A stretch of DNA of 40,516 nucleotides from Minisyncoccota bacterium. GTDB lineage: Bacteria; Patescibacteriota; Minisyncoccia; Phycocordibacterales; SBAW01. The position numbers and the translations under genes are program-made. The stretch spans positions 1 to 40,516 of the forward strand of contig DASZWM010000001.1 of NCBI GenBank assembly GCA_035546615.1, written 5' to 3'. Every line of letters begins with the position of its first letter. Within the stretch, counting starts at the first letter, position 1. Positions 6,250 to 39,250 of the stretch are shown one piece after another. The notes beneath the pieces are model-generated. The model was not told the origin of the DNA. It searched no databases and worked only from the letters and a program-made list of their open reading frames with translations.

Positions 6250-6265
6250 GCAGTGGCGCCGGACA

Positions 6266-6307
6266 ATAAAAAAACGCGCGGGACCAAGCCCCGCGCGTTT
6301 TTATTTT
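6266..6307. terminator. Bidirectional rho-independent terminator between convergent genes
   Basis: 9-bp GC stem ACGCGCGGG/CCCGCGCGT, loop ACCAAG, flanked by A7 upstream and a T-rich tract downstream. Confidence 0.65.
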
Positions 6308-6312
6308 TGTAT

Positions 6313-6978
6313 CTATTCCCCCGACATCTTTATTGCCGGGTCCTCGCCGCCGCTGTCTTCCGTGATCGCCGTATCCTCCGGCGCCTCGGTGTTCTCGGGG
6401 CTGGTGTCCGCGCTCTGCGCGCGGTCGTTGGTGCCGCTCGTGAAGCTCGGTATCCAGCGGCCGCCTCCGCGGTAGCCGATGAGGAAATTCTTCGGGTCGT
6501 CGGACATGTCGGTGAAGTCGTCCACCGTCTCGCGCAGCTGGGCGCTTGAGGACTTGCCGAACGCGATGCACTCCACCTGGCACCCTTCCGTGTAGCGCAG
6601 GTACTCGACCAGCGGCACGAAGTCGCCGTCGCCGGTCGCCAGTATTATGGTGTCGAGCTTGTTGGCCATGGCGAGGGCGTCGATGGCCATGCCGATGTCC
6701 CAGTCGGCCTTCTTGGCGCCGCCGGCGAATACGCGGATGTCCTTGACCTTGGTCTCGATGCCGAGCTTGTTGAGCGCCTCGAAGAAGCCTTTCTCCTCCT
6801 CGGACTCGGTGCGGATAACGTAGGCGATGGCGCGGATAAGGGTGCGCCCCGCGAGCGCTTCCTTTACGACGTTGCCGAAGTTCACCTTCGCCTTATAGAG
6901 ATTCTTCGCGGAGTGGTAAAGATTCTGCGTGTCTATAAAAATGCCGACGCGCTGGCTTTTGTGTTTTATTATTGCCAT
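6313..6978 (-). CDS. NYN-domain (LabA-like, PIN-like) putative RNase with an acidic C-terminal tail
   Basis: N-terminal VGIFIDTQNLYHS..., central ILATGDGDFVPLV motif typical of NYN/LabA; acidic low-complexity C-terminus. Confidence 0.75.
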   Translation of the reverse strand: MAIIKHKSQRVGIFIDTQNLYHSAKNLYKAKVNFGNVVKEALAGRTLIRAIAYVIRTESEEEKGFFEALNKLGIETKVKDIRVFAGGAKKADWDIGMAIDALAMANKLDTIILATGDGDFVPLVEYLRYTEGCQVECIAFGKSSSAQLRETVDDFTDMSDDPKNFLIGYRGGGRWIPSFTSGTNDRAQSADTSPENTEAPEDTAITEDSGGEDPAIKMSGE

Positions 6979-7120
6979 AAAATATGAGCTTAGTAACTAA
7001 AAATGCTTCCGTCTGGCGAACAAAGGATGCAGGGATACAGGAAGATGTAGTCGGCATAGCCTCCTTAATCTTCCAATAAAATCGACCTCCCCTACCAATA
7101 TACTACAAACCAGGCAGCTG

Positions 7121-7143
7121 AAAAATTTCGCGCCGAGGCGGCG
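7121..7143 (-). terminator. Putative rho-independent terminator of rpsO
   Basis: On the minus strand, CGCCG-CCT-CGGCG hairpin followed by GAAATTTTT, directly after the rpsO stop. Confidence 0.4.
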
Positions 7144-7145
7144 AA

Positions 7146-7412
7146 TTACTTCTTGAGACCGAGCTTCTTGACGACCGCGTTGTAGCGGCGCTTGTCGGAG
7201 CCCTCGAGATACTTCAAATGCGTGCGGCGGTCTGCAACCATCTGCAGAAGGCCGCGGCGCGAGTGCTTGTCCTTGAGGTGTTTCTTCAAATGCGAGGTGA
7301 GTTCCTCTATTTTGCGCGACAAAAGAGCGATCTGGACCTCGGGAGAGCCCGTATCCGCATCGTGAATCGCCGATTCCTTTATTACTTTGGTCTTGCGCTG
7401 CTTGGTAAGCAT
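7146..7412 (-). CDS. rpsO: 30S ribosomal protein S15 (start taken at the internal Met, MLTKQRKTK...)
   Basis: 89-aa product ...LLSRKIEELTSHLKKHLKDKHSRRGLLQMV... is the S15 signature. Confidence 0.9.
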   Translation of the reverse strand: MLTKQRKTKVIKESAIHDADTGSPEVQIALLSRKIEELTSHLKKHLKDKHSRRGLLQMVADRRTHLKYLEGSDKRRYNAVVKKLGLKK

Positions 7413-7543
7413 ATACAAATGCAGGGTCTTTCTGTACCCTGCTAAAGAACAGCATATCACGGCCTCGTCCTTTTTGCAAGCCCTTCCCTATATAAGGAAG
7501 AAGGGCCCGCTGGCGCATGCCGGCGGGCCCCTTCAAGATATTT

Positions 7544-8116
7544 TCAGCTAATCAGATCGGTCGGAACCGTACTTTTGTACTTGCCGCATCCAAACGAGGG
7601 CGGGACAAGCCAGGCGGGTGCTTCCGAATAGAAGTAGTGATCGCCCACCACCCCAACCTGCCGGTAGTGAGTCGCCATCCGGCATTTCTCCTTTTGGGAG
7701 GCCGTGCGCGGATTCATGTAGTAGACAGCTTCCCCTAGCAGGCCTGAGGGAGGGGTGAAGTTACCCCGCAGCACCTTCAGGCTTATCTTGATAGCCTGGT
7801 CCCACTCTGGACCAGTCGGGGCCTTTCTCTTGGAGTCGAGTGTCCACGAGAATTGGAACTTCTTGTAGATGACTCCGAGGATAGTGCCCCCGCCCCACAT
7901 GGGACGATCAGCCTTGGCCCGCATGACGGTGAGGTAAGCCACCATCTCTTGGCCCAATTCCGACTCGCCTCGCGCTTCGTAGTACACGTTCAGAGCGGTG
8001 TGATAGAGCTCCTTCACGAACAAATCGTCGCCTTCCGACAATCCGCCCGCTTTGGCACCCCCCGCCACAGTACATGCAAGCAGGATGGCCCAGATAATCG
8101 TACGCACGTGCCGCAT
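7544..8116 (-). CDS. Secreted cell-wall hydrolase, SleB/Hydrolase_2-like
   Basis: Signal peptide; YYEARGES motif (the EARGE core of Hydrolase_2); GC appears lower than in neighbouring genes. Confidence 0.55.
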   Translation of the reverse strand: MRHVRTIIWAILLACTVAGGAKAGGLSEGDDLFVKELYHTALNVYYEARGESELGQEMVAYLTVMRAKADRPMWGGGTILGVIYKKFQFSWTLDSKRKAPTGPEWDQAIKISLKVLRGNFTPPSGLLGEAVYYMNPRTASQKEKCRMATHYRQVGVVGDHYFYSEAPAWLVPPSFGCGKYKSTVPTDLIS

Positions 8117-11051: not shown

Positions 11052-11846
11052 ATGAAAATCATCTCCTGGAACGTCAACGGCATACGGGCGGTCCACAACA
11101 AGGGCCTTTTCGCTCCTTTTATAGCCAAGTACAAGCCGGATATCCTCTGTCTGCAGGAAACCAAAGCCGAGCAGGGCCAGGCGGAGGTGGATCTCTCCGG
11201 CTATGAGGAGTACTGGAACTCATCCCAGGGTAAGAAAGGCTACAGCGGCACCGCTATATTTACTAAAGAAAAGCCTCTTACAGTCGCACTTGGCCTGCCG
11301 GAACACATAACCGCCAAGTACAAGCTTGAAGACAAGTACGGCGACCCCAATAAGGAGGGCCGGGTCATTGCCGCCGAATTTAAGGATTTTTGGGTCGTTA
11401 CCGTCTATACCCCCAACGCCAAGCCCGACCTGTCCAGGCTGGCGCTCAGACACAAGCAGTGGGACCCCGCATTCCTTGCATATATAAAGGAGCTTGAGAA
11501 GGAAAAACCCGTTATTTTCTGCGGCGACCTCAATGTGGCGCACACGGAGGACGACCTGGCAAACCCTAAGGCGAACCGGGGCGAGCACGGTTTCACCGAC
11601 GAGGAGCGCGAGGGCATAGATGCCATCCTTAAGGCCGGGTATATAGACTCTTTCCGGCACTTTACTCCCCAGGGCAAGGGCTTTTACACCTGGTGGAGCC
11701 ATTGGTCTCATGCCCGGGCCCGCAACATCGGCTGGCGCATAGACTACCTCTTTATATCCAAAAAGCTGCTCCCCCGGCTCAAAAAGGCGGAAATCCTGCC
11801 CGAAGTCATGGGTTCCGACCACTGCCCTATTTCGATAGAGATGTAG
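11052..11846 (+). CDS. xth: Exodeoxyribonuclease III (AP endonuclease, Xth/APE1 family)
   Basis: MKIISWNVNGIRA...LCLQETK...SDHCPI EEP-family signature. Confidence 0.9.
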   Translation: MKIISWNVNGIRAVHNKGLFAPFIAKYKPDILCLQETKAEQGQAEVDLSGYEEYWNSSQGKKGYSGTAIFTKEKPLTVALGLPEHITAKYKLEDKYGDPNKEGRVIAAEFKDFWVVTVYTPNAKPDLSRLALRHKQWDPAFLAYIKELEKEKPVIFCGDLNVAHTEDDLANPKANRGEHGFTDEEREGIDAILKAGYIDSFRHFTPQGKGFYTWWSHWSHARARNIGWRIDYLFISKKLLPRLKKAEILPEVMGSDHCPISIEM

Positions 11847-13730: not shown

Positions 13731-13803
13731 GCCCTCGTGGCTCAATGGATAGAGCGCCTGGCTTCGAACCAGGAGGTTCCAGGTTCAAGTCCTGGCGAGG
13801 GCA
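13731..13803 (+). tRNA. tRNA-Arg (anticodon TCG)
   Basis: Manual cloverleaf: acceptor GCCCTCG/CGAGGGC, anticodon arm CCTGG-CTTCGAA-CCAGG, T arm CCAGG-TTCAAGT-CCTGG. Confidence 0.8.
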
Positions 13804-13850
13804 CAAACTTGGAGTTTAAAAATTGGTGCGCTACTATAGTGTGTGTACAA

Positions 13851-13921
13851 GCGGTCATTGTTTAATGGTAGGACGCGTCCTTGCCAAGGACGAGGTGGGA
13901 GTTCGATTCTCCCTGACCGCA
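13851..13921 (+). tRNA. tRNA-Gly (anticodon GCC)
   Basis: Acceptor GCGGTCA/TGACCGC, anticodon arm CGTCC-TTGCCAA-GGACG, T arm GGGAG-TTCGATT-CTCCC. Confidence 0.8.
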
Positions 13922-14137
13922 CAGGATTTACGTTGTTCTAAAAGGAGAAGTTGGTCCGTTTTGAGGTAAAAGACAGGGTGTGGCCGTTTGGGGATATTGA
14001 AATGGCTTAAAATAAGGCTTTTTCAATAAGACCTGTGGATAAGACTGTGGAAATGTGCATAAAGGACGTCCTTTTTACCCTTTGCGGAAGTCTGATTTCC
14101 AAAAAACCAGCAAAATAGGGCTTAAAATGAGCTTTTT

Positions 14138-14155
14138 ACGTTTCATATGAAACGT
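14138..14155. promoter_or_regulatory. 18-bp perfect palindrome ACGTTTCATATGAAACGT, about 40 bp upstream of yraN
   Basis: Seen directly; lies in the AT-rich tRNA-Gly/yraN intergenic region; candidate operator. Confidence 0.35.
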
Positions 14156-14193
14156 TACACGTGAACCCTCGTCAGGATTCTGATGCATTAAAT

Positions 14194-14589
14194 ATGGCTA
14201 AAACTCACAAAAGAGCTATAGGAGATGCCGGCGAAGGTGTTGTTTGCCGGTATTTAGAAGGAAAAGGCTATCGGATTGTTGGTAGGAATTACTGGAAACC
14301 GTGGGGAGAGATAGACATCGTCGCTGAAAAAGGCGATTTGACCATATTTATAGAGGTTAAAACCGTTTCACGTGAAATGGACGGGGAGGGGATTTCACGC
14401 GAAACCTTCAGACCGGAGGAGAATATGCATCCGGATAAGGTAAAAAGGCTGCACCGGACTATACAAACCTACCTTTTAGAGAAAAAAGTCCCTGAAGCAA
14501 GGCCGTGGCGGCTAGACCTTGCCTGCGCCTATTTGGACTTTAAAACCCTTCAGGCGCGTGTTGAAATGTTGGAGAATGTGGTGTTGTAG
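14194..14589 (+). CDS. yraN: YraN/UPF0102-family endonuclease-like protein
   Basis: GEGVVCRYLEGKGYRIVGRNYWKPWGEIDIVAEKGDLTIFIEVKT matches the UPF0102 core; visibly lower GC than surrounding genes. Confidence 0.7.
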   Translation: MAKTHKRAIGDAGEGVVCRYLEGKGYRIVGRNYWKPWGEIDIVAEKGDLTIFIEVKTVSREMDGEGISRETFRPEENMHPDKVKRLHRTIQTYLLEKKVPEARPWRLDLACAYLDFKTLQARVEMLENVVL

Positions 14590-14658
14590 TGCTATCCTCA
14601 AATAATCCAGGCGAGGCAACGCACCGGTAGTACGATTGCGTGGGGTCAAATGCTGTGT

Positions 14659-14729
14659 CGGGGCGTCGTATATCGGTAGTACGCTTGCTTTGGGAGCAAG
14701 ATGGCCCAGTTCGATTCTGGGCGCCCCGA
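14659..14729 (+). tRNA. tRNA-Pro (anticodon TGG)
   Basis: Acceptor CGGGGCG/CGCCCCG, anticodon arm CTTGC-TTTGGGA-GCAAG, T arm CCCAG-TTCGATT-CTGGG; flanks extend the acceptor stem (CTGTGT/ACACAG). Confidence 0.8.
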
Positions 14730-14757
14730 CACAGTATTTGACCGTTAAAGACTTACA

Positions 14758-16830: not shown

Positions 16831-16904
16831 GCGGGATTAGTTTAGTGGTAAAACGACAGTTTTCCAAACTGTAGTTGGGAGTTCGATTCTCCCATCCCGC
16901 ACCA
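16831..16904 (+). tRNA. tRNA-Gly (anticodon TCC) with encoded CCA
   Basis: Acceptor GCGGGAT/ATCCCGC, anticodon arm ACAGT-TTTCCAA-ACTGT, T arm GGGAG-TTCGATT-CTCCC, 3' ACCA. Confidence 0.8.
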
Positions 16905-24009: not shown

Positions 24010-25221
24010 TTATTCGGCCTTCGGAGCCTCTTCAACCGGCTTCTCCTCTTCTTTCAGTTCGCCGGTCTCGGTCGCTTCAGCTACCTTTGCTCCGCCCATA
24101 GACTGTATGTCTATCCTCCAGCCGGTAAGCTTTGCGGCAAGACGTACGTTCTGTCCGCCGCGGCCTATAGCGAGGCTCTGCTGGTCCTCGGCCACTTTTA
24201 TGGTCGCCTTGTGTTCAGTCTCGTCGAGCACCACTTCAAGCACGCGAGCGGGGGAGAGCGCTTCTTGGATGAATGCCTTGGTGTCCTCGTTCCATTCGAT
24301 GATGTCTATCTTTTCGCCGCCGAGCTCGGAGGTAACGGTTGAGACGCGCACCCCGCGCTGGCCGACAAGAGAGCCGACCGGGTCTACGTGCGCGTCGGTC
24401 GAAGCTACTGCCACCTTAGAGCGGCTGCCGGCCTCGCGCGCGACCGCCTTGAATATGACGGTGCCGTGCGCTGCCTCCGGCACTTCCATCTCGAAGAGCT
24501 TCTTGAGGAAATCAGGATGCGCGCGGGAAAGGCGCAGATAAATGCCGCGAGGAGATTCCTCTACCTGGTAGAGAAGCGCGCGGATGCGCTCGCCCTGGCG
24601 ATAGCGCTCGCCGGGAATCTGCTCCTCGTAGGGGAGGATGCCGGTCGCGCGGCCGAGGTCCACGTACAGATTGCCGCGCTCCATGCGCTGCACGGTGCCG
24701 GACACTATCTCGCCCTGGCGCTTGCCGAACTCGGCCACGACCGAGACCTTCTCCGCTTCGCGGATCTTCTGGATAATGACCTGCTTGGCGGTCTGGGCCG
24801 CGATGCGGCCGTAGTCTTCCTTGTTCTCAAGCGGGAAGACGAGCTCCTCGCCAACATGCGCGTCGCGCTTAATGAACTTGGCGTCCGCAAGCATGATGTG
24901 CTGCTCTTCGTTGAAATACGGAAGCTCGGGGATGGGGTTGCCTTCGGCGTCGAGCTTAGGCTCTGCGGGTGCCTCAGGCTCTTCGCCCTCTGTCGCGAAG
25001 CGGACGGTATTCTCGTCCACGACCTCCTTCACCTGCACGAACTGGGTCGTGCCGGCGTCCATATCTATGACCGCGCGGATTATCTGACCCTTCTTGGCGT
25101 ATTCCTTCTTATATGCGGTCGCGAGCGCGGCCTCGATGGCTTCGATGACCTTGGCGCGCGGTATGCCGCGTTCCTCCTCGAGCTCGCCCAGGACCGAATT
25201 CATTACTTTAAGATCGAACAT
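24010..25221 (-). CDS. nusA: Transcription termination/antitermination factor NusA
   Basis: N-terminal RNAP-binding domain, S1 domain, two KH domains (GxxGxxI motifs). Confidence 0.9.
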   Translation of the reverse strand: MFDLKVMNSVLGELEEERGIPRAKVIEAIEAALATAYKKEYAKKGQIIRAVIDMDAGTTQFVQVKEVVDENTVRFATEGEEPEAPAEPKLDAEGNPIPELPYFNEEQHIMLADAKFIKRDAHVGEELVFPLENKEDYGRIAAQTAKQVIIQKIREAEKVSVVAEFGKRQGEIVSGTVQRMERGNLYVDLGRATGILPYEEQIPGERYRQGERIRALLYQVEESPRGIYLRLSRAHPDFLKKLFEMEVPEAAHGTVIFKAVAREAGSRSKVAVASTDAHVDPVGSLVGQRGVRVSTVTSELGGEKIDIIEWNEDTKAFIQEALSPARVLEVVLDETEHKATIKVAEDQQSLAIGRGGQNVRLAAKLTGWRIDIQSMGGAKVAEATETGELKEEEKPVEEAPKAE

Positions 25222-25370: not shown

Positions 25371-26180
25371 ATGCCCATGCGCATCGTATCGCTTAACTGC
25401 TGGGATGACCGCACGGGCACGGTAATACCGTACCTTACGGGGCTCGACGCGGATATCTATTGTCTGCAGGAAATCGCCTCATCGGAGACGCTGTCTGCCG
25501 ACAGGGGATCATTCCGTATCAATACCAGGCTCTTCGCGGAACTGCAGCGGGCCTTGCCGGGCCACACCGGTTATTTCTTTGCCGCGTCCCGCTGGTACTA
25601 CGAAAGCGAGTACATGAAGCCGGGCGACGATCTGCGGCTGGGGAACGCGGTGTTCGTGCGGAACATCTATCCGGTGTGCGACTTTGTTGCGCGATTCACC
25701 TACGGTTCGTTCCGGGATTTGCCATACGGCGAGAAGACATTCCCGAGCCGGGCCGAGGCGTTTCGCGTCGAATTGCCGTCGGGCAAAAGCCTTGTCGTTG
25801 CGAATATGCACGGGGTGTGGGACCCGACGGGCAAGGGCGACACAATGCCCCGGATAGGCCAGACAGCGGCCCTCCTTGGTCTGCTGAAGGGCGTACGGGA
25901 AGAGATCGCGCTGCCGACCGTAGTGTGCGGCGATTTCAACCTCCTTCCCGACAGCGTCTTCTTCAAGGAGTTCCGAACCCGCGGGTTCACGGATCTCGTC
26001 ACTGCAAACGGCCACACGAGTACACGCACCAGCCACTATACCGGCAATCCGGAGAAGAAAGGCAAGCCGCTGTTCGCGGACTACATGCTGGTGAGCGAGC
26101 AGGTCAAGGTGCTGAAGTTCGAAATCGTCCGCGAGCCGGAAGTGTCCGATCACTGCCCGCTCGTACTCGACATCGAATGA
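25371..26180 (+). CDS. Endonuclease/exonuclease/phosphatase (EEP) family protein
   Basis: N-terminal LNCW...CLQE and C-terminal SDHCPLVLDI EEP catalytic motifs. Confidence 0.75.
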   Translation: MPMRIVSLNCWDDRTGTVIPYLTGLDADIYCLQEIASSETLSADRGSFRINTRLFAELQRALPGHTGYFFAASRWYYESEYMKPGDDLRLGNAVFVRNIYPVCDFVARFTYGSFRDLPYGEKTFPSRAEAFRVELPSGKSLVVANMHGVWDPTGKGDTMPRIGQTAALLGLLKGVREEIALPTVVCGDFNLLPDSVFFKEFRTRGFTDLVTANGHTSTRTSHYTGNPEKKGKPLFADYMLVSEQVKVLKFEIVREPEVSDHCPLVLDIE

Positions 26181-26311: not shown

Positions 26312-27976
26312 ATGCACGTCGATAGTGGGGCACTGCGGGATTTTTTGATTTCAAACGGGCTTGTTACCCGCGCGCAATTGGCTGATGTTCTTTCCGCAGG
26401 ACAGGGAGAGGCCCTGTACGACACGCTTGCCGCGCGGGGCGTGGTCTCGCAGGACGAATTGCGCCGCGCGGCGGCGCATGTTGCAGGCGTTTCTTTCGTA
26501 TCGCTCTCGCCGCACGACATAGCCCTGGAGACCTTGAGCCTCATTCCCGAGCCGCTATCGCGCGTTCACAATGTCGTGGCTTTCAGGCAGGAGGGAAATG
26601 TCGTCGAGGTGGCGATGCTCGATCTCGGTTCGCTTGAGCATCTCGCTTTCCTGCGCGACCAGAAAGGCTTTACGGTTCTGCCGCGCCTCACTACTTCGGA
26701 TTCGATAAAACAAACGCTTCGGGCGTACCAGCAGCGCTTAAAGGAGAATTTCAAGGCGCTCCTCCAGAACAGCGCCCATGCGGTCGATGCGCTTATCCGC
26801 CACGCGCTTCTTTCAAACGCCGGGAGCGTTCATCTTGATCTGCATCAGACGGGATTACTCGTGCGCTACCGCATACAGGGCATGCTCCACGAAGCGATGC
26901 TTTTGCCGAAGGAAGCCGCGCATATCTTCGAGCGCATCAAGGAGGCGGCGAATCTCTCGCTTACGCTCCACGTGCCGCAGGAAGGAAGTTTCAAGACGGA
27001 GCTCAGCGGCGGGGAATCGGTCAGCGTGCGGGTCGCTGTGTCGCCGACTCTTTCCGGCGACCGAATGACGCTGCACTTGGCGCCCGAGCGCTCCCGCCGG
27101 CAGGGCTTTGCCCTTGAGTCGCTCGGCCTGCACGGCCGCGCGCTTGAGGATGCGCACGCGCTGCTCCGGACGCGCGACGGGCTTATAATCGTTGCCGGTC
27201 CTCTTAACGCAGGCAAGACAACGACCCTCTATACGCTGCTCGATATCCTGAGCGAGCGCGGCGTATCCGTTGCCACGGTGGAAGAGAATATAGAGTACGC
27301 GCTGCCGCATGTTGCCCAGACGCAAGTGCGCTCCGAACTCGGGCTCACTTCGGCCGCCGCTTTGCGCGCGGTCCTTCGGCAGGATCCGGATATCGTGATG
27401 CTGGGCGACGTTGCCGACGAGCAGACTGCCGCTTTAGCTGCGCAGGCGGCTTCGCGCGGGGTGCTGGTCTTGATGGGTATTGAAGCGTCCTCGGCTGCCG
27501 CGGCGGTAGGGAAGCTGCGCGACTGGAGGATCCCGTCCTCGCTCGTCGCTTCTGTACTTAAGGGCGCCATAGGCGTGCAGGTCGTGCAGAAACTTTGCAC
27601 GAAAGAACGCGAAGAGTACCGGCTCGCGCGGATCGAGAGCGCGCCGCTCGAGCCCAAGGCGAACTTCGGCCGCGTGCTTGCGGCGCTCAAGGAAGAGGGG
27701 ATAGTGGGGAAGGATATGCAGTGGAAGGAGCTTCTTTTCGCGCGCGCTTCCTCCTGCGAGGAGTGCGCCGGAGGATATCAGGGCAAGATCGGGCTCCAGG
27801 AAGTGCTTCCAGTCACTGCTCCTATAAAGGATGCATTAAAGGAAGGCGCGGGAGCAGAAAGAGTAGAGGAAATAGCGCGAGAGGACGGCATGCTCACCAT
27901 AGCCGAAGACGGATTATTTAAAGCCGCGCAAGGCACTACGAGCGTCGAGGAAGTAGTGCGGGTAGTTCAAGCGTAG
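26312..27976 (+). CDS. Type II secretion / type IV pilus assembly ATPase (GspE/PilB family) with a T2SSE_N-like N-domain; catalytic motifs appear degenerate
   Basis: Walker A GPLNAGKTTTLY; RQDPDIVMLGDVAD in the Walker B region; C-terminal CEECAGGYQGKIGLQEV finger; His-box position reads LMGIEAS. Confidence 0.8.
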   Translation: MHVDSGALRDFLISNGLVTRAQLADVLSAGQGEALYDTLAARGVVSQDELRRAAAHVAGVSFVSLSPHDIALETLSLIPEPLSRVHNVVAFRQEGNVVEVAMLDLGSLEHLAFLRDQKGFTVLPRLTTSDSIKQTLRAYQQRLKENFKALLQNSAHAVDALIRHALLSNAGSVHLDLHQTGLLVRYRIQGMLHEAMLLPKEAAHIFERIKEAANLSLTLHVPQEGSFKTELSGGESVSVRVAVSPTLSGDRMTLHLAPERSRRQGFALESLGLHGRALEDAHALLRTRDGLIIVAGPLNAGKTTTLYTLLDILSERGVSVATVEENIEYALPHVAQTQVRSELGLTSAAALRAVLRQDPDIVMLGDVADEQTAALAAQAASRGVLVLMGIEASSAAAAVGKLRDWRIPSSLVASVLKGAIGVQVVQKLCTKEREEYRLARIESAPLEPKANFGRVLAALKEEGIVGKDMQWKELLFARASSCEECAGGYQGKIGLQEVLPVTAPIKDALKEGAGAERVEEIAREDGMLTIAEDGLFKAAQGTTSVEEVVRVVQA

Positions 27977-27982
27977 CTGTTA

Positions 27983-28011
27983 TTGACTATTTATAGTTTT
28001 AGTATTATATT
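27983..28011 (+). promoter_or_regulatory. Sigma70-like promoter candidate (TTGACT-N17-TATATT) upstream of tpiA
   Basis: Seen directly in the AT-rich 200-bp intergenic region. Confidence 0.3.
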
Positions 28012-28176: not shown

Positions 28177-28935
28177 ATGGCTAAAAAGCGCCTTGTCGCC
28201 GGAAACTGGAAAATGTATATGGCCGATGCCGCCGAGGCCCGCAAGTTCGCGGTGGGTCTCCGCCGCCGCACCCGCGGCTTCTCGGGGGTAGAGGTATTCC
28301 TTGCCCCGCCCCTTCCTTTTATAGCCGATATCGCGAAAGCGCTTGAAAGCTCGCCAATTGAGGTGGGCGCTCAGATTATATCCGCGCATGAGGACGCGCC
28401 GCATACCGGCGAAGTATCGGGCCGTATGCTCAAGGGTGCGGGCGCTTCTTTCGTCATCGTCGGCCATTCGGAGCGCCGCGCTTCCGGCGAGACGAACGAC
28501 GTGGTGCGCGCAAGCCTCGAGCGCGCGGTGGAGGCGGGCCTTACGCCGGTCCTGTGCGTCGGGGAGCGCGAGCGCGAGGCCGACGGCGAACACTTTGCTT
28601 TTATCGAAGCCCAGCTTTCGTCCGCTTTGAACAATTTTCCGAAGAACCTCCTCAAAAAGCTTGTCGTGGCCTACGAGCCGGTGTGGGCGATAGGGAAGTC
28701 GTCCGTCGGCGCGATGAAGGCGCCCGAGCTTGAGGAAATGGTCATATTCGTGCGCAAGACGCTTACGGATCTGCTTGACCGCAAGGCCGCGCTCAATATC
28801 CGCGTGCTGTACGGGGGTTCGGTCGAGCCCGGCAACGCGTCGGAGCTTCTCGCGGCCGGCGTCAACGGGTTCTTGGTGGGCCATGCGAGCGCGGATCTGA
28901 ATTCGTTCGTGCAGATCATACAGGCATGCAAGTAA
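28177..28935 (+). CDS. tpiA: Triosephosphate isomerase (start at MAKKRLVAGNWKMY)
   Basis: AGNWKM, VIVGHSERR and YGGS TIM signatures. Confidence 0.9.
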   Translation: MAKKRLVAGNWKMYMADAAEARKFAVGLRRRTRGFSGVEVFLAPPLPFIADIAKALESSPIEVGAQIISAHEDAPHTGEVSGRMLKGAGASFVIVGHSERRASGETNDVVRASLERAVEAGLTPVLCVGEREREADGEHFAFIEAQLSSALNNFPKNLLKKLVVAYEPVWAIGKSSVGAMKAPELEEMVIFVRKTLTDLLDRKAALNIRVLYGGSVEPGNASELLAAGVNGFLVGHASADLNSFVQIIQACK

Positions 28936-29894
28936 CTTCAATACGAGACGCGGATGTTTCCGGCAAACGCGTACTGGTGCGCGTTGATTTCAATGTGCCG
29001 ATGAAAGACGGACAGGTCGTAGACGACGCTCGTATCAAGGCGGCGCTGCCCACTATTGGTTTTTTGCACGAGCGCGGCGCCGCGCAGATAATCCTGCTCG
29101 CGCATCTTGGCCGGCCGGATGGGAAAGTGGTGGAAGACCTGCGTCTGGCGCCGATTGAGGCGCGCGCGAGGGCGCTCATAAACGCGCCGTTTGAGATGCA
29201 TGAGAACCTGCGCTTTGATGCCCGTGAGGAGGCCAATGACGAAGGGTTCGCGAAGGAGCTTGCCGGCCTCGGCGACATATTCGTGAACGAGGCGTTCGCC
29301 GATTCCCACCGCGCGCACGCTTCCATTGTCGGGATTCCGAAGTTCCTGCCCAGCTATGCCGGGCTCAGGTTCGAGGAGGAAGTGACAAAGCTTTCCGCCG
29401 CGCTTACGCCGCCACCGGGCGCCGTCGCCATTATCGGCGGGGCAAAAATAGAGACGAAGGCGCCGCTTATCGAGAAATTCGCCGCCACCTACAGCCTCAT
29501 ATTGGTGGGAGGCGCCATCGCTAACGAGTACACCGCAAAGACCAATAACGTGATGTTGCCGCAGGACGGCGTCAGCGACGCAACACATGTGGCCGATATC
29601 GGCCCCGAGACCGCCCGCGCGTGGACCGAAATCATCGCGCAGGCGCCGTTTGTCGTATGGAACGGCACTATGGGTATGTACGAGCAGTCCGCGTTCATCG
29701 GAGGCACGGACGCCATAGCCAAGGCTATTATCGGCAGCCGCGCCGTCGCCATCATCGGGGGCGGCGACACCGCGGCGGCGGTCGCGAAGTTCGCATTCGA
29801 TCCCGCGCGCATTTTCATCTCAACCGGCGGGGGAGCGATGCTCGAATTTTTGATACAAGGCACATTGCCCGGCATTGAGGCGCTCAAGCGGTAG
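28926..29894 (+). CDS. pgk: Phosphoglycerate kinase (short form, 322 aa)
   Basis: VRVDFNVP, HLGRP, GGGD/GGGA motifs; overlaps the tpiA stop by 10 nt. Confidence 0.85.
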   Translation: MQVTSIRDADVSGKRVLVRVDFNVPMKDGQVVDDARIKAALPTIGFLHERGAAQIILLAHLGRPDGKVVEDLRLAPIEARARALINAPFEMHENLRFDAREEANDEGFAKELAGLGDIFVNEAFADSHRAHASIVGIPKFLPSYAGLRFEEEVTKLSAALTPPPGAVAIIGGAKIETKAPLIEKFAATYSLILVGGAIANEYTAKTNNVMLPQDGVSDATHVADIGPETARAWTEIIAQAPFVVWNGTMGMYEQSAFIGGTDAIAKAIIGSRAVAIIGGGDTAAAVAKFAFDPARIFISTGGGAMLEFLIQGTLPGIEALKR

Positions 29895-30225: not shown

Positions 30226-30576
30226 ATGCCGCCGGAATCGCAACCGCAACCGCAGCAGCCCCGCATTCTTTTTCCGAAAGCGCATCTTTTTGTCGCGCTT
30301 GCGGCCGGCGCCTTGTGCGTCGCGGGCGGCACGGCGGCCCTTTTCTTTTCCCGCTCGCCGGACGTTTCTCCTGCGGCGCAGGCTCCAGAGCCTCCGGCAT
30401 ACGACAGCCGCTCTCTTACCGCCGAGGAAAAATTGAAACTCATCTCGGAGCATCCCGCCCCTCCGGGCCTTTCCGCCGAGGAGAAGGAAGCCGCGTACGA
30501 ACACAGCGGTGCAACAGCTCCGGAAGGCCTTACGTCGCAGGAAAAGCAGCGCATGGCCGAAGAAGCGCAGAACTGA
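30226..30576 (+). CDS. Small membrane-anchored protein with three (L)(T/S)AEEK-type repeats
   Basis: AAGGAG SD; TM helix LFVALAAGALCVAGGTAALFF; repeats LTAEEKLKLI / LSAEEKEAAY / LTSQEKQRMA. Confidence 0.55.
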   Translation: MPPESQPQPQQPRILFPKAHLFVALAAGALCVAGGTAALFFSRSPDVSPAAQAPEPPAYDSRSLTAEEKLKLISEHPAPPGLSAEEKEAAYEHSGATAPEGLTSQEKQRMAEEAQN

Positions 30577-30582
30577 TCACGC

Positions 30583-31533
30583 ATGAAACCTGCTACGACT
30601 TTAAAACGGCATATGCGAACTGCGCTTGCATGGATGGTCGCGCTCGCGGCTGGCATAGCGGTGCTCGCGACGCTTTCTCGTGTCATGCCGGCGCCCCCCC
30701 TTTACGCGCAGGTGCCCGCCGCCAACGGAGGCGTCCTTGCGCACGCCGCATGGAGCTCGAATATTGGCTGGGTAGAGTTTTCGGGAACAGGCTGGGGCGT
30801 GTATCTTTCGCCAAGCGACGGCACTTCGCTCCTCGGCTACGCCTGGAGCTCGAACGTGGGATGGATACAGTTCGGCGCGACATCGTGCGGCGCGGCGCCA
30901 AGCATAAGCGGCACCAAGCCCACCGTATCGCTCACGGGCTGGGCCAAGGCGCTCGCCACGGGCGGCGGCTGGAATGGCTGCATCAAACTTTCTAATACCG
31001 GCTCGCCGTCATATGGCGTCGCCGTCTCCTCGTATTCGCAGGCCAGTCAAGGGGGCTTGCTTCAAGGCTACGCGTGGGGGAGCGATGTGGTCGGCTGGCT
31101 TCGGTTCGATCCGGCGCCCGGCGGCGTGTATCTCAAGTTTACCTCCTGCAACAACGGCCTCGACGATGACCATGACGGCCTCGCCGACGCGGCCGACTCC
31201 GACTGCCCCGACCTGACTTCAAACGGCGAAGTAGTGACGAATCCGGCCGCGACGGTCGATATCAAGGCTAACGGTAAGGACACGCTGTCGGTGCGTCAGG
31301 ACTCGAGCGTGAGCGTCACCTGGAGCACGAGCCTCGTCGGAGGCTGCACGCTGACCGACCCTTCCGGAACCAGCGCTGTTTCCGATCAGAATACCGTGGG
31401 CTCGGCCTATACTGTCTCGGCCGCGAGCGGCTTCACTCTCGCCTGCCGCGAGCTCGTGGGCGGCCTGCCTACGGGCCCCGCGCATAGCGATAGGGTCGTG
31501 GTGCACCTGCTTCCTATGTACCGCGAGATTTAG
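30583..31533 (+). CDS. Secreted/anchored protein with three WSSN(I/V)GW(I/V)xF tandem repeats, a thrombospondin-type-3-like Ca-binding motif and a C-terminal beta-rich domain
   Basis: N-terminal hydrophobic segment; repeats AWSSNIGWVEF, GYAWSSNVGWIQF, GYAWGSDVVGWLRF; DDDHDGLADAADSDCPD matches DxDxDGxxDxxDxCP. Confidence 0.65.
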   Translation: MKPATTLKRHMRTALAWMVALAAGIAVLATLSRVMPAPPLYAQVPAANGGVLAHAAWSSNIGWVEFSGTGWGVYLSPSDGTSLLGYAWSSNVGWIQFGATSCGAAPSISGTKPTVSLTGWAKALATGGGWNGCIKLSNTGSPSYGVAVSSYSQASQGGLLQGYAWGSDVVGWLRFDPAPGGVYLKFTSCNNGLDDDHDGLADAADSDCPDLTSNGEVVTNPAATVDIKANGKDTLSVRQDSSVSVTWSTSLVGGCTLTDPSGTSAVSDQNTVGSAYTVSAASGFTLACRELVGGLPTGPAHSDRVVVHLLPMYREI

Positions 31534-31548
31534 TGATAAAATAAACTC

Positions 31549-32697
31549 ATGTTCAAAAAGACGCGCGAAGAATTCCTCCGGTTTTCAAAAGCTTTCCTGC
31601 TAGCCGCTTTAGTTCTTCTGGGAAGCGCGGCGCTCGCCGATTGGACCGCGCCCGTTGCCGCGCCACCCACCTGCGCTTCCGGCAACCAGGGCTGCGACGC
31701 GCCCATCAACGTAAGCGCAACAGCACAAACCAAAACGGGCAATCTCACCATCGGCTCAGGCGGCACGAACGTGCTCATTTCCGCCACCGGTTATATCTGG
31801 CCTACTATCCTGAATGTCGGCAGCACCTATCCAACCACGCCCCCTCCCAACAGCATTTGCCTATCGGGTTCGTGCATTACCGCCTGGAGCCAAGCCGGCG
31901 GAGGCGGGACTGACTATCAGGCCTTCACTACTGCGGGTGCTGGGTCATGCCCCGGCACTGGCACTAATTGCTGGACGAAGCCAAGCGGCACCACCGCGTC
32001 ATCACGTACGCTCATAGAGTGCTGGGGAGCGGGCGGCGGAGGCAGCGCTAATGGCGGGGGTGGGGGCGGCGCATATCGCGGGCGCTGGGTCCTGACCTCA
32101 TCTCTCGGCGCGACCGAACCGGTTACTATCCCTGGCACAAGCAACACAGCAACCGCAGGAGCGGCAGCTTCTTTCGGAACCTGGGCAACAGCACCGGGGG
32201 GTGGGGCAAGCAACACGACAAGCGGCGGAGGCGGAGGCGGAGGTGGCGGGTATGATGCGGCAGGCGGCAATGCCGGCGTCGGCGGCGGGGGCTATGCCGC
32301 CAGCGGCGGTAACGGCGGCAATGCCGCGTATAGTTACGGCCTTGCAGGCCTGTGCAGCCTTTCTTCCAACGTGGCACTGCGTACCGGTACTGACGCTACC
32401 AGCGGAGGCGGAGGCGGAGGCGCGGCAGGCTGCGAGGGCGCAGACAAAGGAGGCGACTCCATTACCGGCGGCGGGGGTGGCGGCGGCAACCATGGAGACG
32501 GTAACCCGAAGAACGGCGGCAACTCAATATGGGGCGGCGGAGGAGGCTCAGCCGGGTCTTCAGGAGGAAGCGGAGGGCGCAGTATGTACGGCGGCGCGGG
32601 CGGCGCGACCGGTGTTGCGGGTACCGCGCCGGGCGGCGGCGGCGGGCGCAACGCCCAAGGAGCCCGCGGCGAATGCAGGGTTACGACGTTTAAGTAG
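31549..32697 (+). CDS. Secreted glycine-rich protein (Gly_rich / polyglycine-II-like), with an N-terminal Cys-containing domain
   Basis: Sec signal peptide ...AALA; IECWGAGGGGS, GGGGGGGGGYDAAGGNAGVGGGGY and further Gly runs; antisense frames are Pro-rich artefacts. Confidence 0.65.
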   Translation: MFKKTREEFLRFSKAFLLAALVLLGSAALADWTAPVAAPPTCASGNQGCDAPINVSATAQTKTGNLTIGSGGTNVLISATGYIWPTILNVGSTYPTTPPPNSICLSGSCITAWSQAGGGGTDYQAFTTAGAGSCPGTGTNCWTKPSGTTASSRTLIECWGAGGGGSANGGGGGGAYRGRWVLTSSLGATEPVTIPGTSNTATAGAAASFGTWATAPGGGASNTTSGGGGGGGGGYDAAGGNAGVGGGGYAASGGNGGNAAYSYGLAGLCSLSSNVALRTGTDATSGGGGGGAAGCEGADKGGDSITGGGGGGGNHGDGNPKNGGNSIWGGGGGSAGSSGGSGGRSMYGGAGGATGVAGTAPGGGGGRNAQGARGECRVTTFK

Positions 32698-35780: not shown

Positions 35781-37136
35781 GTGGCAAATCGTTTCATATT
35801 GGGTCTGCTTATTTTGGCCTATGTTGGCGCGCTTATCGTGCGGACAGATTTTCTTTTACGAAGCGAGGCAGGGGAGACGCTTAAGAATTACGTCGGCACT
35901 TCTGCGACTGTTGAAGGGAGGGTCGTGAACGACCCAGAACATCGCGACACGTCGCTCCACGTCAACGTCGAAGTTTCTAAAATAAATGATGAAGCTGCAA
36001 GCGGCGTATTGCTTGCGATACTGCCGCGAGAAGCGCAACTTCAGTACGGAGACAGAGTCGCGCTTAAAGGAAAAGTAACCGCGCCGGAATCTTTTGAAAC
36101 TGATACCGGGAGAATATTTGATTACGCCGGCTACCTGCGCGTGCAGGGAGTATCGGCGATGCTTAAATACGGAACGATTGAAGAAATAAATCCCGGCGGA
36201 TGGTCGCTCCAAAAAACGCTGTTCGATATCAAGCACGGGTTCGAACACTCGCTTGAGCGAATGCTGCCGGAGCCGGACAACTCGCTGCTCGAAGGGGTAC
36301 TCCTCGGCGAGCGGCGCGGATTGCCCGACAGCCTCAACCATGCGTTTATCGTCTCAAGCCTGGTGCATGTTGTCGTGCTCTCCGGCTACAACATTTCTAT
36401 CGTCGCCAATGCGATGCTGTACGCGACCAGCATTTTGCCTCGCACGCTTAGCTACGGGCTCGGCGGCGTGCTGATGGTCCTCTTCGCTATCATGACGGGC
36501 GCCGGCGCCACGACGGTACGCGCGTGCGCCATGGGTATCATCGCGATAGTGGCGCAGTATATGCGCCGCAGGGCCGTAGCTATGCGCAGCCTCATTGCGG
36601 CGGCGGGCGCCATGGCGTTGTGGAATCCGCTCATTATCCTGCACGACACTTCCTTCATATTGAGCGTGCTGGCGACCTTCGGGCTCATTACGCTGTCGCC
36701 GTGGGTGGAAACATACCTCTCTTGGATGCCGCGGTGGAAATATCTGGACGTACGCGCCATAGCCGCCTCTACCATTGCGGTGCAGATATACATATTGCCC
36801 GCGCTGCTGTACTTCATGGGCATACTTTCGTTCGTAGCGCTTCCGGCCAATATGCTGGCGCTCCCGGTCGTGCCGTTCGCGATGCTCTTAGGTTTTTTTG
36901 CAGGGGTTGTGGGGCTGATCCAGCCGGTTCTTGGGCTGCCGCTGGCATTCCTCGCGGATATTCTGTTGCGCTGGATGATGTTGGTGGCAAACACCGCCGC
37001 ATCCCTGCCGTTTTCTTCAGCCACCATAGCCGCGTTCCCTGCATGGGTCGCAGTTGCGGTCTATATTCCCCTGACGGGCTTCGCTATCTGGCTATATCGA
37101 AACGCTTCTCGAGAACAGACCAGTTCAAGTTCTTAA
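35781..37136 (+). CDS. comEC: ComEC/Rec2 DNA-uptake channel: DUF4131 OB-fold plus Competence domain, lacking the C-terminal metallo-beta-lactamase domain
   Basis: N-terminal OB-like region, then a polytopic TM region with LLGERRGLPD...FIVSSLVHVVVLSGYNIS typical of the Competence domain. Confidence 0.8.
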   Translation: MANRFILGLLILAYVGALIVRTDFLLRSEAGETLKNYVGTSATVEGRVVNDPEHRDTSLHVNVEVSKINDEAASGVLLAILPREAQLQYGDRVALKGKVTAPESFETDTGRIFDYAGYLRVQGVSAMLKYGTIEEINPGGWSLQKTLFDIKHGFEHSLERMLPEPDNSLLEGVLLGERRGLPDSLNHAFIVSSLVHVVVLSGYNISIVANAMLYATSILPRTLSYGLGGVLMVLFAIMTGAGATTVRACAMGIIAIVAQYMRRRAVAMRSLIAAAGAMALWNPLIILHDTSFILSVLATFGLITLSPWVETYLSWMPRWKYLDVRAIAASTIAVQIYILPALLYFMGILSFVALPANMLALPVVPFAMLLGFFAGVVGLIQPVLGLPLAFLADILLRWMMLVANTAASLPFSSATIAAFPAWVAVAVYIPLTGFAIWLYRNASREQTSSSS

Positions 37137-37674
37137 GGAATGCCTCGACGTACTTAGCTTTTCCGGTAGCGCCATAATCCAAAAGGAATGCATGTTCCCA
37201 CACATCCAATGCCAGGATGACGGGGAGCGTTACAAAATGCCCTTGGTGCTGTTCGCCTGAGAAACCGGTTATGAATTGCTTGCCCTGCGGGTCCCAATAG
37301 AGCATGGCCCAGCCCGGGCCGCGCATCATGGCTATCATCTTGAACATCTCGAGGAAGTATTCCGGTTTGTGGTATTCGGCCTCCAATTGCTTGGCCAGAG
37401 GGCTGTCGGGGGAGAGGGGAGCTCCTCCTCCTTCGAATTGCGAGAAATACAGCTCGTGGAGGCGCATGCCGTCCCATTCGAACGAGCGGCGGCGGATAAG
37501 CTCCGCAAGCGCGTGATTATTCTTCTCGGCTTCTTTCGCGTATTCCGGCAAAAGTGCCGACATCGCGTTGAAATTCTTGACGTACCCGGCGTAAAGTACC
37601 AAATGCTGCTCTATGGACTCCTTAGAAATGCCTTCCAGTGCCGGCAGATCAAACTTTTTTTCTTGGTATTGCAT
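37084..37674 (-). CDS. sodA: Fe/Mn-family superoxide dismutase
   Basis: DVWEHAF..DY C-terminal metal-ligand motif and overall Fe/Mn SOD layout; 3' end overlaps the comEC 3' end by 53 nt (convergent). Confidence 0.85.
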   Translation of the reverse strand: MQYQEKKFDLPALEGISKESIEQHLVLYAGYVKNFNAMSALLPEYAKEAEKNNHALAELIRRRSFEWDGMRLHELYFSQFEGGGAPLSPDSPLAKQLEAEYHKPEYFLEMFKMIAMMRGPGWAMLYWDPQGKQFITGFSGEQHQGHFVTLPVILALDVWEHAFLLDYGATGKAKYVEAFLKNLNWSVLEKRFDIAR

Positions 37675-37832: not shown

Positions 37833-38312
37833 ATGCGCTATCTATTAGCCGCAGTCGGAGCCTGTGTGGCCTTGGCTGCTGTATCATCAGCGAATGCATT
37901 CGACGGGCTTTATCCGAAGATCGTGTCTGTGCCGCAGGATGATGCGGGTTATGGCGGAGAAACAACAATATCGCCATTACCCGATCCTCCTCTAGCGGAC
38001 GAAGATAACGTCAACGGGACTGATGATGTCGACCTTGTTGTTGAAGGCAAGGGTGACATCATCTTCTGTACCGCCGAGGACTACTACTGCTACGCCAGCT
38101 CTTCCTGGAAAGAGGCTCGAGAAAAGGCCCTTCCTCTCGTTGAGGCGGGAATCTTTTTTCCACTTCCCGGAGCTCGCGTGCTGGAGGAGACCGAGGTTGT
38201 CTGGCTGTTCGATTCCGACGTTCTGATCGAGCGGGCTTCCCGTTTCAGTCATGAACCGCCGTATGACCGGCCGTCGGTCGGCCGAGAGCCGATCGTCGCA
38301 TCGGCACCATGA
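37833..38312 (+). CDS. Secreted hypothetical protein, 159 aa, translationally coupled (ATGA) to the downstream MBL gene
   Basis: CAGGAGG SD; Sec signal peptide MRYLLAAVGACVALAAVSSANA; acidic mature part. Confidence 0.5.
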   Translation: MRYLLAAVGACVALAAVSSANAFDGLYPKIVSVPQDDAGYGGETTISPLPDPPLADEDNVNGTDDVDLVVEGKGDIIFCTAEDYYCYASSSWKEAREKALPLVEAGIFFPLPGARVLEETEVVWLFDSDVLIERASRFSHEPPYDRPSVGREPIVASAP

Positions 38313-39250
38313 AGGAAGTCGTGAGCCCGGACGACCATATGTCGCCCGGGTTCCTGCTTTTTATGTATACTTTCCGCATGCGGTTTTTGCGGCAGTATTT
38401 TTCATACATCGTGTTCGTGGCGCTTGTCCTTGCCTCCATCGGCATCTGGAGCGCGGTATTCGCCGCAACGCCCAGCGGCGTCCTTACGTTCGCGGTACTC
38501 GATATCGGGCAAGGAGACTCCTTATATATAGAGTCTCCTGTGGGTACGCAGATACTCATTGACGGGGGGCCTGACGGATCGGTTTTGCACGAGCTGCCGA
38601 AAGTGATGAGCTTTTCAGACCGCTCCATTGATGCGGTCATCGCGACGCATCCGGACGCGGACCATATCGCAGGGCTGGTCGATGTGCTCAAGCGCTACAG
38701 CGTCGGTGATTTTCTCGAGCCGGGCATCGCCAAGAGCACGGTTACCGCGCAGGCGCTTGAAGACGGCGTGGACGCAGCAGATATTCCGCGCATCAAAGCT
38801 ATGCGCGGCATGTGGCTGGACCTCGGCGGGGGAGCGCGCCTCGACATTTTGTCGCCGGACTTTGACGTTTCGACCCTTAAGCCCGACGAGGCAAACGAAG
38901 GCTGTGTTGTTTCAAGGCTCACCTACGGCGCCACATCCGTTCTGCTCATGTGCGACGCGCCGATGGACGTGGAAGGTCACTTGATGGGTATCGAACCCGT
39001 TGCCGATCTGAAGAGCAACATTTTAAAAGTAGGCCATCACGGCTCCGCAGGCTCGACGGGGGACGCGTTCGTTTCTGAAGTGGATCCGTCCGTGGCGGTT
39101 ATCTCGGTAGGGGCCGGGAACCGGTACGGTCATCCTACCCGGCAAACGCTCGATACGCTTGCAGGCCACAATATAAAAACCCTCCGGACCGACGAGGAGG
39201 GGACTATCGAGTTTATATCGAACGGGGAGACCTTCGAGCGGATTAGATAA
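38309..39250 (+). CDS. Stand-alone membrane-anchored metallo-beta-lactamase domain of ComEC type (the ComEC C-terminal domain as a separate gene)
   Basis: TM helix, then VLDIGQGDSLYI, HPDADH and VGHHGS motifs typical of the ComEC MBL domain. Confidence 0.7.
   Translation: MKEVVSPDDHMSPGFLLFMYTFRMRFLRQYFSYIVFVALVLASIGIWSAVFAATPSGVLTFAVLDIGQGDSLYIESPVGTQILIDGGPDGSVLHELPKVMSFSDRSIDAVIATHPDADHIAGLVDVLKRYSVGDFLEPGIAKSTVTAQALEDGVDAADIPRIKAMRGMWLDLGGGARLDILSPDFDVSTLKPDEANEGCVVSRLTYGATSVLLMCDAPMDVEGHLMGIEPVADLKSNILKVGHHGSAGSTGDAFVSEVDPSVAVISVGAGNRYGHPTRQTLDTLAGHNIKTLRTDEEGTIEFISNGETFERIR

Follow-up and report, generated by a model that had tools for sequence, protein, structure and literature searches.

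An orphaned PilB homologue with eroded catalytic motifs, probably a retained pseudo-ATPase, in a Minisyncoccota lineage

A 40,516-nucleotide stretch of a Minisyncoccota bacterium genome (contig DASZWM010000001.1, positions 1 to 40,516; hereafter the window) encodes a full-length member of the PilB/GspE family of ATPases, here called PilB*, with no pilus genes beside it. We suggest that PilB* is probably a non-motor pseudo-ATPase, orphaned by an operon deletion and kept under purifying selection for a binding, scaffolding or regulatory role. Judged from sequence, it has the attributes of a pseudoenzyme: a homologue of active enzymes whose catalytic residues appear lost, which evolves under purifying selection and is retained throughout the lineage sample. 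As selection keeps PilB* despite the loss of catalytic residues, it probably does something other than drive a pilus.

Motif positions were placed twice, by phmmer alignment to the Geobacter PilB structures 5zfr and 5tsg (gap-free around the motifs, E 1e-62 to 1e-64) and by MAFFT alignment with 61 canonical Paceibacteria PilBs. The two placements agree, with no shift. A preliminary description of the gene had aligned these motifs by eye, and correctly: the phmmer and MAFFT alignments showed no shifted Glu, Arg or His residues. Residue roles are those of PilB from G. metallireducens (PilB-Gm; PMC5424180), with the numbering offset read off the phmmer alignment. Walker A is intact, as first described, and keeps K302; its Lys binds phosphate in PilB-Gm (PMC5424180). 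The Asp-box residues E353 and E357 of PilB-Gm, the latter a Mg2+ ligand (PMC5424180), correspond to E324 and E328 of PilB*, and both are retained.

Other parts of the active site are eroded. The Walker B region MIGEIRD reads MLGDVAD, with the catalytic Glu (E395 in PilB-Gm) replaced by D366 and the next Arg by A368, both as previously noted. The His box, canonically TGHLVLSTLHTNDA, reads RGVLVLMGIEASSA; loss of its His had been recognized, and in fact both are gone (H413 to V384, H420 to E391). In PilB-Gm, H420 contacts the gamma-phosphate and H413 also belongs to the His box, and T411 makes an inter-subunit backbone contact and is bound by R455 at the open interface (PMC5424180); the last two are R382 and Q426 in PilB*. 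One of three arginine fingers is kept, R240, equivalent to R271 (of RVS), which binds E357. R257 (QDGR to QEGS), which forms a salt bridge to E357, has become S226, and R286 (of 'LRL'), a gamma-phosphate contact, has become H255 (roles from PMC5424180). The initial list of losses was therefore right but understated, lacking S226, H255, Q426 and the change of EDP to EEN.

These losses characterize a clade. The best 120 homologues, split by motif extraction, comprise 59 proteins that are 45-71% identical to PilB* (clade A) and 61 that are 41-44% identical (clade B). Clade B motifs are fully canonical (RLPQDGRF, GPTGSGKTTT, STIEDPIEY, MVGEIRD and TGHLVLSTLHTNSA). None of the 59 clade-A proteins has His at either His-box position, and the His box is universally lost among the roughly 70 members of the clade. 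Position 366 is D in 22, E in 14 (24%), S in 11, N in 6, H in 3 and A in 2; the GEIRD Arg is retained in 27% of clade A, R226 in 68% and R240 in 49%, and D224E is fixed. The Walker A Lys is present as K302 in 88% and replaced in 7 of 59 (about 12%), as well as in three of six further metagenome members (L092, L094 and L099; L numbers denote related loci and contigs). G301, present in 100%, E324, R352, an RYR triplet, Q223/G225/F227 and many N-terminal residues are 97-100% conserved. Some members have an N-terminal truncation of about 45 amino acids.

The preliminary description counted the first CxxC, which reads CTKE, as a further sign of degeneracy; the sequence was read correctly, but the interpretation does not hold. 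Three of four Zn-ligand cysteines are present in PilB* (the second CxxC is CEEC), with all four found in some clade-A members and at most two in canonical Paceibacteria PilBs. Since these canonical, catalytic proteins have lost more of the tetracysteine, and clade A keeps C482 (59 of 59), C429 and C485 (at least 90%), CTKE is not part of the degeneracy.

Clade A is an orphaned ortholog of the operon PilB and not an old extra paralog, because its members occupy the same genomic slot and nest in the tree among syntenic canonical PilBs. In L036, a Kaiserbacteria metagenome-assembled genome (MAG), nusA and tpiA-pgk flank a canonical PilB in this very position, and after it come PilC (T2SSF), a 602-amino-acid CarboxypepD_reg-domain protein, an N_methyl pilin and a 496-amino-acid protein. 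This placement rules out an ancient extra paralog, and synteny and tree together overturn the initial view of PilB* as a separate paralog apart from a pilus cluster; it is instead the positional ortholog of operon pilB. Mapping by tblastn shows that many canonical Paceibacteria have the five-gene pilB block in the interval from nusA to tpiA, and that every clade-A locus has PilB* alone there. Canonical loci (L009-L038, L103-L167) read nusA, PilB PilC ... pilin ..., triosephosphate isomerase (TIM) and phosphoglycerate kinase (PGK), and 14 full-length clade-A loci have the same frame with only PilB* in the slot (the window, L001, L003, L005-L008, L029, L090, L092, L094, L095, L098 and L099). Two short contigs (L002, L004) carry the PilB* gene without frame context. 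Across six clade-A members of 43-61% identity this frame does not vary: RNase Y(-), ClpP(-), trigger factor(-), pyrophosphatase(-), NusA(-), PilB*(+), 0-7 small unannotated ORFs (open reading frames) in the gap to TIM, then TIM(+), PGK(+), HIT(-), RecJ(+), RNase H(+) and ComEC(+).

The isolation from pilus genes reported at the outset was borne out, with no pilC, pilM or pilin nearby. Among ORFs of at least 150 amino acids in the 40.5-kb window there was no match to T2SSF/PilC, PilM, PilT, prepilin peptidase or N_methyl pilin. The window and the clade-A loci also yielded no pilin-like ORF when scanned by motif, a scan that did detect the positive controls in canonical loci; tblastn found no remnants of pilC, pilin or accessory genes in clade-A loci or in L136. 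The ancestral order was probably nusA(-), pilB pilC, a large CarboxypepD_reg-domain protein, pilin, a protein of about 500 amino acids and tpiA pgk. The window's lineage, one of tiny Paceibacteria, would have undergone deletion of all genes between pilB and tpiA, and PilB* would be isolated because pilC, the pilin gene and the accessory genes were removed in this way.

A lineage sample independent of PilB, gathered by probing metagenome contigs with the window's NusA, gives the same picture. Where NusA is at least 79% identical, 9 of 9 assessable contigs have a degenerate PilB* with tpiA-pgk directly after it and no PilC; contigs at 57-69% carry canonical PilB and PilC, and L102 (NusA 75%) has a canonical PilB in which the contig stops. 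No case of nusA adjoining tpiA without PilB* was seen in this NusA-anchored sample. In three contigs (L091, L093, L097), the 520-860 bp that precede nusA contain no PilB* and form an ORF-free, low-GC spacer without Rfam match; as these contigs end within the spacer, they are not assessable and are not evidence of loss. The L097 spacer (positions 1-856) has a GC content of 34-46% and no similarity to PilB*.

One further locus, L136 (Ga0070727_10000309; NusA 65%), has PilB at 6099-7835 (-), then tpiA directly, and no PilC. Erosion of this PilB is partial. Walker A Lys, catalytic Glu and arginine fingers remain, with changes at GEIKD (Arg to Lys), in a His box of SGHLMLGGMY (second His to Tyr) and at R455 (Glu). 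L136 may record the same orphaning event at an early stage, or a separate event. In a neighbour-joining tree of 153 sequences, core clade A (58 sequences) is monophyletic on a long stem, with L136 as its sister, and both nest among the syntenic canonical PilBs.

The small ORFs between PilB* and tpiA in L001, L003 and L005 were considered as divergent pilins and rejected for want of a class III signal motif; they were likewise rejected as pilC fragments, as tblastn to PilC, pilin and accessory proteins gave nothing better than an E of 0.005, at the level of noise. In some members the former pilC/pilin slot is a variable region, with 4-6 kb of small unannotated ORFs in L003 (11700-17600) and L005 (11700-15800), among them genes for a HicB-like antitoxin and an MJ1673-family protein; in the window, L007 and L008 the slot spans only 30-200 bp. 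The canonical pilus operon carries two conserved large genes of unassigned role (L036 12856-14664 and 15275-16765; also L009, L010, L035, L103 and others): a CarboxypepD_reg/Ig-like protein of about 600 amino acids between pilC and pilin, and a protein of about 500 amino acids without Pfam match after pilin. In some other Patescibacteria a single pilus cluster contains two canonical PilB genes (L034 10001-20735, about 4 kb apart; L087 2752-8545, adjacent), followed by a shorter PilT-like match and then pilC.

The orphaned gene evolves quickly under selection that is relaxed but persists. In canonical syntenic genomes PilB tracks NusA approximately 1:1, with mean identities of 65.6% and 65.0% (TIM 42%, PGK 45%) and PilB at 75-81% where NusA is about 80%. 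In clade-A genomes NusA averages 85.5% and PilB* 47.2%, now under TIM (56%) and PGK (57%); Kimura correction of these means gives an approximately five-fold acceleration of PilB* relative to NusA. Additionally, the ORF has stayed open at 500-600 amino acids across about 70 lineages with saturated synonymous sites, and nonsynonymous differences per site (pN) are far below synonymous ones (pS) in every pair. The least saturated pair (L095-L098, NusA synonymous divergence, dS, 0.54) gives omega of about 0.21 for PilB*, 0.10 for NusA and 0.13 for TIM. Omega estimates are rough, given that dS is saturated in most pairs.

Constraint has shifted rather than vanished. The ratio of clade-A to clade-B conservation (A/B) is 0.61 in the ATPase core, which has lost the most constraint, and 0.48-0.53 around the Asp box; it is 0.76 in N1 and 0.89 across the Cys-rich C-terminal subdomain, where residues 431-500 reach 1.0-1.36. 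This subdomain is thus the part of PilB* best conserved relative to canonical relatives. The low ratios arise although clade A is taxonomically narrower than clade B.

The fold has been retained throughout. PilB* matches Pfam T2SSE (PF00437) over profile positions 10-370 of 370 (231.2 bits, E 2e-68, cutoff 24.9), and its N-terminus matches MshEN/T2SSE_N (PF05157; 40.5 bits, cutoff 23.1). Its scores lie under the cutoffs of both equivalog models, at 279.2 bits for PilB (TIGR02538, cutoff 675.65) and, well under, about 279 bits for GspE/EpsE (TIGR02533, cutoff 630). TIGR02538 scores descend stepwise from canonical Paceibacteria PilBs (513-545, also under the cutoff) through L136 (411) to clade A (257-307). 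Structure prediction, proposed in the preliminary description as a check, yielded an AlphaFold2 (AF2) model with a predicted local distance difference test score (pLDDT) of 88, the PilB/GspE fold intact and the whole three-domain architecture of N1, N2 and C-terminal domain (CTD). Foldseek searches with this model returned 4pht, 5tsh, 5oiu and 1p9w (E 1e-39 to 1e-35, probability 1.0), the top Protein Data Bank (PDB) matches being GspE 4pht and PilB 5tsh (E 1e-39 to 1e-37). N2 and the C-terminal RecA-like fold typical of GspE/PilB are present, and the 4pht alignment reaches across N1.

Invariant N1 residues common to PilB* and canonical PilBs are D48, R52, G59, F62, P79-E80-P81, R84 and T127. 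A role of the N-terminus as a cyclic di-GMP (c-di-GMP) receptor was considered and rejected, as it scores 22.1 bits against the NCBIfam c-di-GMP motif model NF053729, under the cutoff of 38. In alignment to PilB, the 'RLG' that we take to be the start of the c-di-GMP-binding motif has Arg replaced by A and Gly by R.

These observations are consistent with a stepwise conversion from motor to pseudoenzyme. The His box was probably lost once, in the lineage's common ancestor, since when the catalytic Glu and arginine fingers, and in some members also the Walker A Lys, would have eroded independently. PilB* can probably still bind Mg-nucleotide, as the P-loop Lys and Thr and both Asp-box glutamates are kept. 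Going by the mechanism of G. metallireducens PilB, it most likely cannot run the rotary/sequential hydrolysis cycle that drives PilC, because the gamma-phosphate sensors (R286 to H255, H420 to E391) and the water-activating Glu (now Asp) are gone, as are the subunit-coupling residues R257, T411/H413 and R455. Rather than a motor, PilB* would then be a binding protein, either a scaffold or a regulator that senses nucleotide or a partner, with the constrained surfaces of N1 and the Zn-finger subdomain its likeliest functional parts. Control of exopolysaccharide by Myxococcus xanthus PilB is independent of ATP hydrolysis and of pili (PMC5544727), and thus hydrolysis- and pilus-independent signalling exists in the PilB family. 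More tentatively, the whole pilus may have been lost and PilB exapted to a hydrolysis-independent protein acting through N1 and the Zn-finger subdomain; it might, for example, be a regulator that senses nucleotide or a partner and is tied to the functions of neighbouring tpiA-pgk or ComEC/RecJ. If exaptation is true, no natural pseudo-ATPase clade would have been described in the PilT-like superfamily before this one.

Several points weigh against a retained pseudo-ATPase. D366, together with the acidic residue at the former H420 position (E in 45 and D in 5 of 59), could permit some hydrolysis. Replacement of the Walker A Lys by R, V or T in some members points to nucleotide binding being dispensable or to drift toward loss. 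A canonical PilB and a complete pilus system elsewhere in the genome could let PilB* still act on pili. Additionally, the neighbour-joining tree is open to long-branch attraction, notably in its placement of L136, and L095-L098 is the only pair informative for dN/dS.

Among alternatives, PilB* could serve a type IV pilus or competence machine whose genes lie elsewhere, as a regulatory or scaffolding subunit that docks through N1 or forms mixed hexamers with canonical PilB; a regulatory or scaffolding role had been raised in the preliminary description. We consider such a subunit role unlikely. Type IV pili are common in Patescibacteria (PMC8672522), ComEC and RecJ are kept a few kb downstream in all members, and N1 residues common to canonical PilBs are 90-98% conserved in clade A. 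However, the gene is the positional ortholog of operon pilB and not an added paralog, and pilus genes were absent from the window and, in relatives, from the approximately 45 kb of non-redundant sequence inspected around the gene. A profile scan with a mixed alignment returned, among the matches listed, almost only canonical PilBs of other genomes (L029 was the only clade-A sequence), and no canonical PilB among them was tied to a clade-A genome. That the lineage has no pili is plausible, as 12-36% of groundwater Patescibacteria MAGs are without PilC/M/O (PMC8672522).

The preliminary description left the choice between a pseudo-ATPase and a divergent enzyme; the former is the best reading of the sequence, and the latter is weakened by the spread of residues within the clade. 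A divergent but still active ATPase would have D366 as base and E391 in place of the His, and PilB* does keep Walker A, both Asp-box glutamates, an acidic residue 366 and an intact fold (AF2, Foldseek), with E or D at 391 in 50 of 59 clade-A members. Yet 22 of 59 members have S, N, H or A at position 366, 9 of 59 have another residue instead of E328, positions 255 and 226 vary, and the Walker A Lys is replaced in the members given above, a spread that a conserved catalytic mechanism would not tolerate. The ATPase core is also the region with the greatest loss of constraint. Thus, we regard continued activity as improbable. That PilB* is a functionless relic nearing loss, its frame open by chance or for tpiA-pgk expression signals in its DNA, is the least credible proposal: it suits the rate acceleration, the stepwise loss of catalytic and even nucleotide-binding residues and the N-terminal truncations, but not the long ORFs kept despite synonymous saturation, pN far below pS, the dozens of invariant residues, a C-terminal subdomain conserved as much as or above that of canonical PilBs, the confident AF2 model, the promoter-like site of tpiA itself, or a NusA-anchored sample in which no lineage member was seen without the gene.

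Features of the window and of PilB*, with position, strand and basis of assignment
Feature	Position	Strand	Basis
PilB* ORF (PilB/GspE family, full-length, ATG to stop, 554 amino acids)	26312..27976	+	ORF list, Pfam, PDB alignments, AF2, Foldseek, synteny
N1 domain, T2SSE_N/MshEN fold, residues 1-145	26312..26746	+	Pfam MshEN
N2 arginine-finger region, residues 222-256: PQEGS, VRV, LHL	26975..27079	+	residue mapping
Walker A/P-loop, canonical GPTGSGKT reads GPLNAGKT, residues 296-303, K302 and T303 kept	27197..27220	+	alignments
Asp box TVEENIEY; E324 and E328 kept, canonical 'EDP' reads 'EEN' ('DP' gone)	27275..27298	+	alignments
Atypical Walker B and catalytic position, DPDIVMLGDVAD	27383..27418	+	alignments
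Former His box, RGVLVLMGIEASSA	27455..27496	+	alignments
Cys-rich C-terminal subdomain, C429 (CTKE) ... C482-E-E-C485	27596..27766	+	alignments
nusA, divergent upstream anchor of the syntenic frame	24010..25221	-	Pfam in relatives' loci, tblastn
EEP-family gene between nusA and PilB*	25371..26180	+	Pfam Exo_endo_phos, E 7.6e-14
tpiA, downstream anchor	28177..28935	+	ORF list, tblastn
pgk, downstream anchor	28926..29894	+	ORF list, tblastn
Promoter-like site TTGACT-17-TATATT	27983..28011	+	consensus match only

The flanking EEP nuclease, tpiA and pgk were correctly named in the preliminary description. The EEP gene is a lineage-variable insertion outside the conserved frame, with a homologue in the same place only in L090 (6985-7827, 40% identity) and no EEP gene at this spot in other members; L007 and L008 have other insertions between nusA and PilB*. 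A second, higher-scoring EEP gene lies at 11052-11846 of the window. The promoter-like site sits in the 200-bp spacer between PilB* and tpiA, that is, in the pilC/pilin slot of canonical relatives. As it falls between the PilB* stop and tpiA, the PilB* ORF is not obviously kept for tpiA-pgk expression.

Farther along the window, pgk is short at 322 amino acids, like that of L001 (359-391 in other lineage members), and its Pfam PGK match is broken into three stretches, suggestive of internal deletions. Three ORFs between pgk and recJ (30226-30576, 30583-31533 and 31549-32697) have no Pfam match and each have a hydrophobic N-terminal segment; the last (382 amino acids) is extremely Gly-rich, with GGGGG runs. 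Counterparts of similar size occupy the same place in L001 only, where other members have a HIT-family gene. ComEC is split into a DUF4131+Competence gene (35781-37136) and a separate Lactamase_B gene (38309-39250), with an opposite-strand Fe/Mn superoxide dismutase (37084-37674) and a 159-amino-acid ORF between them, an arrangement also found in L006, L007 and L029. The tRNA genes of the window (13731-14730, 16831-16904) are Arg-TCG, Gly-GCC, Pro-TGG and Gly-TCC, and the approximately 740 bp from tRNA-Gly to tRNA-Pro hold no ORF of at least 150 amino acids and no Rfam match.

Pseudoenzymes as a category are already known. Our full-text search of the literature found no description of a degenerate PilB/GspE pseudo-ATPase clade among PilT-like or secretion ATPases, or of orphaned PilB genes in Patescibacteria. 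Clade-A genes are routinely named 'type IV pilus assembly protein PilB' in JGI annotations, and PilB is taken in metabolic reconstructions of Patescibacteria to indicate pili and pilus-mediated attachment or DNA uptake. In the clade-A lineage the inference of pili from PilB is probably wrong, and the His box together with an adjacent pilC offers a simple annotation test. The lineage also provides a stepwise case of motor-to-pseudoenzyme conversion, in which operon deletion would come first, His-box loss second and lineage-specific erosion of the catalytic Glu, arginine fingers and P-loop last, with L136 as an intermediate. Should PilB* prove to have a retained role, a hydrolysis-independent activity of the PilB family would come to light, one possibly hidden in canonical motors as well, as the M. 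xanthus protein hints.

Among the known systems closest to PilB* is type IVa PilB (TIGR02538; 5TSG/5TSH of G. metallireducens, 5ZFR, and 5IT5/5OIU of PilF). PilB* shares the three-domain fold (sequence E 1e-64, Foldseek E 1e-37), retains Walker A, the Asp-box glutamates and one arginine finger, and is the positional ortholog of the Paceibacteria operon PilB. It differs in having Asp for the catalytic Glu, no His-box His and two arginine fingers lost, in lacking an adjacent pilC or pilin, in evolving about five times faster measured against NusA, and in its TIGR02538 score of 279 bits. Among GspE/EpsE proteins (TIGR02533; 4PHT, 1P9R, 4KSR), 4PHT is the best full-length structural match, N1 included, and the Cys-rich metal-binding subdomain is common to both; however, PilB* differs by the same catalytic losses as from PilB, no type II secretion system (T2SS) genes are present, and Patescibacteria are monoderm-like.

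Bacillus subtilis ComGA has growth-arrest roles beyond DNA uptake. ComGA and M. xanthus PilB are fully catalytic motors that moonlight, whereas PilB* has lost both the motor chemistry and its operon partners. Nonetheless, the regulatory effect of M. xanthus PilB, exerted without ATP hydrolysis or pilus assembly (PMC5544727), is an activity that an orphaned PilB could retain. With pseudoenzymes in general PilB* shares the loss of catalytic residues, a kept fold and persisting purifying selection, and here synteny directly reveals how it arose, by orphaning through operon deletion.

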